Shown here in pieces: positions 15,960-16,213 of a DNA stretch of 64,000 bases. Position 1 is the stretch's first letter. Each line of letters opens with the position of its first letter. The position numbers were made by a program, and so were the translations under genes. The notes under the pieces were generated by a model. The model was not told the DNA's origin. It saw nothing but the letters and a program-made list of their open reading frames with translations, and searched no databases. This DNA is from Octopus sinensis (Eukaryota), in assembly GCF_006345805.1 (NCBI RefSeq), contig NC_042998.1, forward strand, positions 33,790,001 through 33,854,000. The letters run 5' to 3'.

Positions 15960-16213
15960 CATTTAATTCAACGAATGTGTCCATTATTTACATTATTTAC
16001 ATTTGACCTCATCTTGTTTGTTGTTAACACAACGTTTCGGCTGATATACTCTCCACCCTTCATCAGGTGTCTTGAGGAAGTTTCGAACCTGGGTTCTCAT
16101 TCCTAAGATATTTTTCAACGTTATTATTATTATTCAGGTCTCTTCCGAGAATCGAACTCGGAATCTTGAAGTTAGTAGCTCGCGCTCTTAATCACTACGC
16201 CATACACCCGTGG
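15960..16213 (-). mobile_element. tRNA-head element carrying a hammerhead (family D)
   Basis: Minus: TGGCGTAGTG A-box, GAGTTCGATTC B-box, (AAT)n, then hammerhead; second copy 48420-48858. Confidence 0.7.
16026..16071 (-). ncRNA. Minimal type I hammerhead
   Basis: gacac-CUGAUGA-A-gggug..cagcc-GAAA-cg-UU-guguu. Confidence 0.7.

Follow-up and report, generated by a model that had tools for sequence, protein, structure and literature searches.

A tRNA-like head in the pseudo-LTR of a Penelope/Poseidon-type retrotransposon of Octopus sinensis: a probable promoter and source of solo repeats

On the minus strand of the window (the whole stretch of Octopus sinensis DNA analysed here, 64,000 nucleotides), a tRNA-like head is followed by an (AAT)n spacer and then by a minimal hammerhead, the three forming one unit of about 275 nt. 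This locus raises the question of whether head and ribozyme belong together and, if so, whether they make up a SINE, a retrozyme or part of a PLE. The initial annotation had read the head with its boxes A and B, the spacer and the hammerhead from the minus strand, and all are present in the sequence. It had placed them at 15960..16213 with a short tail; the unit is indeed there, but the copy stops at 15983 and the optional tail is absent. The copy (15983..16213, minus strand) is a solo pseudo-LTR of a Penelope/Poseidon-type element, as argued below, covering unit positions 3–250 in the short, tailless form, with 86% identity to the family majority. The putative tRNA-derived head, delimited by sequence and by comparison with tRNAs, occupies 16135..16213, and transcription would start at its first base. 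A candidate box A of a type 2 Pol III promoter lies at 16192..16202 (79–100% per-position conservation across copies; the last base, reading 16202–16192, is the one mismatch to the family majority), and box B, recognised by its sequence and its conservation across copies, at 16149..16159. The spacer (16121..16134) holds four AAT repeats in this copy and varies in length among copies. The start of the element's ORF (15983..16100) has its ATG at 16100 and translates in the element's frame for about 30 open codons before a frame-shifting deletion. Within it, 50 nt beyond the AAT run, sequence and motif scan place a minimal type I hammerhead at 16027..16070, with a 4-bp stem I, a CUGAUGA core, a 5-bp stem II (one mismatch in this copy), GAAA, a palindromic CG and a GUU site, the predicted cut lying 3' of 16031. 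All of these features are on the minus strand.

A second solo copy had been reported at 48420–48858. It exists, with a main arm bounded by 48860 and 48429 (minus strand, unit 1–250), and it has in addition a head-to-head inverted arm that the earlier description lacked (48858..48944, plus strand, unit 15–101, ending in a long AAT run). In the main arm, G8 of the hammerhead core is changed to U and the ATG is also mutated. Its AAT run is interrupted by an insert of about 170 nt (48602..48769, minus strand), the 3' piece of an unrelated AAT-tailed repeat with 21 matches in the fetched loci, mostly followed by AAT runs. The head fragment expected at about 6695–6758 was found at 6686..6759 (minus strand, unit 19–92), followed by another SINE, with no hammerhead part near it. 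The (AAT)n spacer is a landing site for other AAT-targeting retroelements: in several copies (L202 6655–7000, L137, L139 and L147) it is split by the 3' end of an AAT-ended LINE, which we take to be of the R4/Dong type.

The head resembles a tRNA, though a degenerate one. Neither ARAGORN nor Rfam gave a tRNA match in it, whereas a hidden Markov model built from the genome's own tRNAs matched the majority head with E = 0.0013 and the window copy with E = 1.5. Its best pairwise match, among the six isotypes sampled, was tRNA-Arg(TCT), with a score of 61, where the highest of 200 shuffles reached 51. A box-B-like word at unit position 133 was considered as a second tRNA piece and rejected (score 30, with the 95th percentile of shuffles at 33); it is coding sequence. 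Rfam did not detect the hammerhead, and the lowest-energy fold of single copies was not the hammerhead, as is to be expected of a minimal motif. Single-strand folding z-scores were not significant. The Rfam miRNA matches are artefacts of microsatellites and hairpins.

A full-length query returned 3,925 candidates, of which 40 were scored. To counter query bias, each half of the unit was used as a separate query, and a blind sample of 85 stretches of 10 kb (850 kb) was searched; duplicates (L111, L141, L160, L292, L293, L295, L311, L344, L355 and L356), the query locus (L281) and a match to AAT only (L057) were dropped before counting. With the head alone as query, the hammerhead part lay collinear downstream in 26 of 29 loci. 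With hammerhead and tail as query, the head was present in 16 of 28 loci, the others being 5'-truncated, and four of the six insertions in the blind sample carried both parts collinearly. The linkage is not a chance nesting, because the two parts are collinear in these three sets of loci, and the objection foreseen in the initial annotation, that head and ribozyme would usually be found separately, did not hold for these loci. All six blind insertions were solo units, against no copy with ORF sequence. Scaled from 850 kb to 2.7 Gb, they correspond to about 19,000 insertions genome-wide (95% range 7,000–42,000). The divergence of arms from the majority is 4.6% at non-CpG sites, measured on 186 arms with a bias towards the best matches, and the family looks inactive in this genome. 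Sequencing runs of seven organisms (A–G) contain the unit, and the junction between ORF and head is bridged by contigs of organisms E and F and by none of the pieces listed for G. In the comparison of L321 1800–2560 with runs X18 and X20, a few variants occur on a small number of contigs whose depth is very high, and these variants suggest younger, abundant subfamilies of the element in organisms E and G.

The coding context of the unit is seen at one locus of the head query (L122), where a decayed RT and endonuclease frame stops just before the head on the same strand. A search with this frame yielded 55 non-redundant ORF loci, 44 of which reach the ORF end, and 41 of these 44 continue directly into the head, so that the linkage to PLE ORFs suggested for checking at the outset is borne out. 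At the other side, the 3' end of the unit continues into the ORF N-terminus (L343), and with a junction query the tail continued into the ORF in all 40 scored matches (four of which are one duplicated locus). The layout begins with the ORF stop, from which some 25 nt lead to the head; then come the (AAT)n run, the ATG, the hammerhead, the 3' ends at about 250 and about 275, and the ORF onward; unit positions 122–275, over half of the unit and including the hammerhead, encode the ORF N-terminus. Since the head abuts the ORF end and positions 122–275 encode the ORF start, the unit is the pseudo-LTR (3' UTR plus ORF start) of an RT and GIY-YIG retrotransposon of the Penelope/Poseidon type. Of the two identities proposed earlier, that of a PLE which had taken up a promoter of the Pol III type fits this structure. 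A SINE- or retrozyme-like parasite of Penelope RT does not, over half of the unit being the coding start of the element itself, and retains only its behavioural part, in the excess of solo units.

The majority frame runs from the ATG at unit position 122 for 835 codons without a stop, and its protein is 56% identical to P0003 over residues 11–831. The first 52 residues, which lie wholly within the unit and across the hammerhead, are 52% identical to the P0003 N-terminus over 42 residues. The protein has RT motifs and a C-terminal CCHH-type EN region, the EN being assigned by motif; Pfam RVT_1 was matched by nine of 11 aligned relatives, and the decayed copy L350 matched no Pfam family. By inspection of the translation, there is no Zn-finger-like or Cys-rich linker between RT and EN, and a CxxxxCxxC linker is present in the other PLE families of this genome. 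Such a linker is described as a Neptune/Nematis feature in the accessible part of PMC8557442, and its absence points to a Penelope/Poseidon architecture. The family combines features of EN+ PLEs of the Penelope/Poseidon type, namely a single ORF with RT and GIY-YIG, no linker, a hammerhead-bearing pseudo-LTR and inverted arms with a one-sided tail, and is placed among the EN+ PLEs by each of these, the clade name resting on architecture. Among the loci followed, no intact full-length copy and no contiguous head-to-head full-length copy was found; the longest copy (L343) runs from unit position 218 to position 275 of the next unit, with stops. All seven junction copies followed from a 5' unit into the ORF (L460–L466) end at model positions 453–926, and not at T runs. 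Two of these seven are joined straight to another unit piece, suggesting template jumps onto short RNAs. A scan of viral contigs gave no relative.

Other PLEs of the window and genome were considered as partners of the unit and rejected. The unit was matched in none of 30 loci of the PLE at 22657–25794 and its sister families, one of which carries a different, U3-A8 hammerhead, and in none of 30 loci of a third PLE family (L215 type); the unit copies that lie beside other PLEs (L202 and L212) are taken as chance neighbours. The PLE at 22657–25794 is a 5'-truncated, Neptune-like element with RT and EN fragments, a Cys-rich linker and inverted arms of 606 nt, and it has many close genomic copies with long open frames. 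A head-to-head junction of a PLE end with a U3-A8 hammerhead core variant lies at 34343–34498 (see also L201–L203), and the family with this variant has intact frames of 784 aa. The window also contains a near-perfect palindrome of 178 nt (33974–34151) and a decayed EN-region fragment of another Neptune-like PLE (54400–54878).

The insertions have the anatomy of a PLE. The 3' ends of 148 of 157 arms fall at unit positions 241–251 or 271–287. As to whether copies are arranged in tandem or inverted, inverted arms abut the 5' end at 15/29, 20/28 and 21/30 searched loci (56/87 overall) and at four of the six blind insertions, compared with 6/143 and 11/177 in two ordinary SINEs. Long tandem arrays were not seen and none of the six blind insertions is an array, the searched loci giving one two-unit case (L357) plus a few partial tandems. 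The inverted pairs consist of one long and one short arm in 59 of 69 cases; this is the one-sided tail of PLEs, here of about 25 nt, which in PAc of the anole goes back to a pair of internal sites in the ORF start at which the RT begins (PMC11167929, accessible part). Flanking matches of 8–10 bp were found at four of 13 single-arm copies and at none of 13 controls (Fisher P = 0.096). No insertion end among the mapped arm ends falls at the hammerhead cut (unit position 191). The hammerhead is probably weak and dispensable for insertion, because every copy spans its cut site; the available text on PAc likewise reports that insertion in vitro does not need hammerhead cleavage (PMC11167929).

We then considered where the RNAs behind these insertions began. 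In the head, hammerhead and blind sets, 38 of the 51 arms reaching position 17 stop between −5 and +17, an interval for which the scatter of ORF-internal 5' ends over 1.7 kb leads one to expect about 5%. In the two sets without head selection, the end lies there in 10 of the 12 arms that extend to +5 (Fisher P = 0.0003, with the rest of the head as comparison). This pile-up coincides with the first bases of the head, 13 nt ahead of box A, the distance at which a type 2 Pol III start is expected, and most templates therefore seem to have begun at the first base of the head. At three of 20 junction loci the copy has its 5' end at the head start and extends into the ORF, so ORF-bearing RNAs also appear to have begun there. 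Sequence upstream of the head, reaching into the ORF end, was found in 11 of 33 arms of the head-query set, and one tandem junction (L448/L462) runs from an ORF end through a unit into the next ORF. At −28 relative to the head start there is a TATAA that overlaps the stop codon of the ORF; it agrees just as well with Pol II starting at this base.

The 2,927-nt majority model (ORF depth of at least six copies) contains no TTTT on its coding strand. For the majority ORF, 3.2 runs would be expected and none is found, an absence with P = 0.022 by codon shuffling, P = 0.036 by recoding with the codon usage of other PLEs and P = 0.11 under a first-order Markov model. The single copy L350 has two TTTT runs against 2.8 expected, and the 16 real copies have 0.54 per kb; the test sets a majority sequence against single copies. 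In the other PLE families of this genome, seven of eight ORFs have five to eight TTTT runs and the eighth (1.2 kb) has one. Of 79 metagenome relatives, 46 were kept once ORFs shorter than 1.2 kb had been excluded, and removal of near duplicates left 31; these 31 have 221 runs against 190 expected; none of the 16 ORFs of at least 2 kb, and one of the 31 overall (1.4 kb), is free of TTTT. The absence is an observation on one family, of modest strength. No AATAAA occurs in the pseudo-LTR.

RNA reads came from three raw runs of organism B, made from unstranded, fragmented libraries. In these runs, 75% of the reads over the unit run on into the flanks, there is no pile-up at the head start or at the predicted cut site, and no unit-length go-back joint occurs among the reads listed. 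Being unstranded, flank-running and free of pile-ups, the reads show embedded copies only. Among the sequencing runs listed as containing the unit there was no RNA run. At 11 positions of L009 1640–1725, A>G or T>C was present in 9–20% of the RNA reads of organism B and in 0–4% of genomic copies, RNA and DNA not being from the same individual; this pattern fits A-to-I editing of head-to-head arms.

The best explanation, which we consider probable, is a Penelope/Poseidon-type pseudo-LTR with a tRNA-type head promoter that is the source of the solo units. The pile-up of 5' ends, the arms that run into the ORF and the TTTT-free majority make it likely that solo units derive from RNAs started at the head; the coding RNA may also be a Pol III product. 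The head would be a promoter, most likely for Pol III, with transcription starting at its first base. The RT of the element would bind the ORF-start region and initiate inside the RNA at either of two sites, at unit position 250 or 275, in the manner shown in vitro for PAc in the part of PMC11167929 available. RNA from any intact head, solo or full-length, could thus yield an insertion from the head to 250 or 275. A full-length copy would require read-through of the entire ORF into the next pseudo-LTR, and the lack of TTTT over 2.9 kb would permit such read-through by Pol III, a step we propose tentatively. The fuller version of this scheme, in which the whole coding element is transcribed end to end by Pol III, its TTTT-free 2.5-kb ORF is translated uncapped and the pseudo-LTR doubles as a SINE, is conceivable at somewhat less than even chances. 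Penelope transcription is described as dependent on a partial tandem (accessible part of PMC2377424), and an internal promoter would release the element from this need. More speculatively, the head might go back to a single event in which a tRNA SINE with an AAT tail was inserted immediately after the stop codon, SINE insertion into a terminal repeat being the origin proposed for TRIMp3 promoters (PMC10886601, in the sections available). Translation of an uncapped Pol III RNA would have to be cap-independent, again speculatively, and a precedent that ties ribozyme cleavage to such translation is given for viruses and LINEs in the accessible text of PMC13725137.

A division of labour, in which Pol III makes short RNAs from solo or 3' heads and the coding RNA is made by Pol II from an upstream or tandem context, is a possibility to be taken seriously, although we do not hold it to be the expected outcome. 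It differs from the best explanation only in the source of the coding RNA, the structure being common to both. The predominance of solo units in the blind sample, the arms that extend upstream into the ORF end and the tandem junction all agree with it, whereas the TTTT-free ORF and the head-start copies that continue into the ORF are left unexplained. It is unlikely that the element is an ordinary Poseidon with a Pol II start governed by the TATA at −28, in which a SINE head landed once in the 3' UTR and hitchhikes; the solo units would then be solo pseudo-LTRs of the usual kind, produced when the RT initiates internally, close to the 5' end of long RNAs. Besides the TATAA itself and the weakness of the TTTT deficit under the Markov model, this account can draw on the accessible parts of two papers: the Pen2a pseudo-LTR of Adineta has a TATA and an Inr-like motif, and solo pseudo-LTRs are known (PMC3846280), and minimal hammerheads are mostly single motifs from truncated PLEs (PMC4209133). 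It is opposed by intact A and B boxes, in correct position 13 nt behind the piled-up 5' ends, by 2.9 kb without TTTT, unlike other PLEs, by a 3' end without a poly-A signal and by the loss of the TATA from every head-start copy.

An independent, non-coding SINE or retrozyme of the Sm-alpha kind, spreading through hammerhead-cut unit-length or circular RNA, is very improbable: boxes A and B with a hammerhead do occur together in schistosome Sm-alpha, on the accessible evidence (PMC6765202, PMC2576457), and one two-unit tandem was seen (L357), but the unit adjoins the ORF at both of its ends and encodes its N-terminus, which largely refutes this origin, and inserts end at unit positions 1, 250 and 275 and not at the cut site at 191, with no long arrays and no unit-length go-back joints among the RNA reads listed. 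That AAT-tailed tRNA SINEs and PLE ends meet repeatedly in AAT microsatellites can be dismissed, despite the attraction of AAT runs for other elements and the existence of pieces with head and AAT only (window 6759–6686, L112, L137), on the linkage in 26 of 29 head-query loci and the one fixed junction of head and ORF end (41/44), which refute chance nesting as a recurring event and leave it plausible as the single origin of the head.

In the usual view, Pol III works for non-autonomous SINEs and TRIMs, and PLEs depend on a Pol II promoter that partial tandems restore. The present family would place a tRNA-type internal promoter exactly where a PLE promoter belongs, each solo repeat having both the promoter and the RT start sites, and is a direct example of how a Penelope pseudo-LTR can give rise to a SINE-like family. 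If the coding RNA were also made by Pol III, it would be a protein-coding transcript of an enzyme thought to make only non-coding RNA, and would offer a clean test of the translation of uncapped PLE RNA and of the purpose of the PLE hammerhead. In practical terms, some 19,000 insertions resembling a tRNA SINE are Penelope ends, the head-to-head arms of which appear to be substrates for A-to-I editing.

Comparisons with published elements are based on the accessible parts of the papers cited. With PAc (Anolis carolinensis, PMC11167929) and Pen2a (Adineta vaga, PMC3846280), the family shares a single ORF with RT and, at its C-terminus, GIY-YIG, a pseudo-LTR extending over the ORF start, on which a minimal hammerhead lies, two 3' ends with an optional one-sided tail, head-to-head inverted arms, AT-rich flanks and perhaps occasional duplications of 8–10 bp. 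Unlike these two, its pseudo-LTR starts with a box A/B head at which the 5' ends pile up, its coding strand lacks TTTT, and its tail is about 25–28 nt long rather than 30–40. In PAc, too, reads do not pile up at the predicted hammerhead cut (PMC11167929). Minimal hammerheads in PLE pseudo-LTRs were already known (PMC4209133), and the PLE promoters described are either TATA-less and LINE-like or of TATA/Inr types (PMC2377424, PMC3846280). The literature searched by full text, a scope outside which Repbase, Dfam, SINEBase and subscription papers fall, contains no PLE with a tRNA-derived head; the octopus SINE and Penelope classes in the accessible part of PMC13282606 include no such case, and the repeat library or supplements of PMC13282606 and PMC8557442 may hold the family.

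The unit resembles schistosome Sm-alpha and Sj-alpha in that a type I hammerhead comes after boxes A and B (PMC6765202, PMC2576457). Sm-alpha is non-coding and tandem, with a canonical, active hammerhead that frees its units (same sources), whereas the ribozyme here is minimal and lies inside an ORF, with no insertion end at its cut site; the likeness drawn earlier thus applies to the parts and not to the arrangement, which is dispersed and coding. Metazoan non-LTR retrozymes are likewise short hammerhead repeats related to PLE pseudo-LTRs, but they form tandem non-coding units that give rise to circular RNA (PMC7229834, bioRxiv 10.64898/2026.07.22.740005), and the copies described here are dispersed and mostly single or inverted; the accessible text mentions no tRNA head for the retrozymes. 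The TRIMp3 elements Helenus, Ajax and Cassandra also carry a Pol III promoter derived from a small RNA inside a terminal repeat (PMC10886601), and differ in being non-autonomous LTR elements, the promoter-like head here lying in a Penelope pseudo-LTR on a full RT-EN ORF.

A distant relative, a tandem Poseidon-like element on a metagenome contig (L366 2790–3025; period of 2,791 bp, protein 38% identical), carries, beyond the stop of its ORF, a TATA-like word, a pair of words like boxes A and B, an AAT run and a hammerhead; each unit contains two TTTT where four are expected. None of 5000 shuffles produced the box pair, but the tRNA model gave E = 7 and Rfam gave no match; the contig hints that a box A/B head recurs on Poseidon-like elements. 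In the 79 metagenome loci of relatives, clear tRNA-like matches (L371, L362) lie outside the pseudo-LTR.

Octopus has SINE families of its own, OK, OR1 and OR2, reportedly described as tRNA-derived by Ohshima and Okada in 1994. Like tRNA-derived SINEs (SINE2), which are characterised by a tRNA-like head, a discrete 5' end, no TTTT and a high copy number, the present family has all four, with the box A/B head at the 5' end of its copies. Unlike them, it has no LINE tail or poly-A, it is neither non-coding nor separate from its partner, of which the unit is the terminal repeat, and its 3' part is the coding start of an autonomous element. Nor does it form the head-to-tail, non-coding hammerhead arrays of a retrozyme. 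The element works partly like a SINE, yet it belongs neither with the SINEs nor with the retrozymes.
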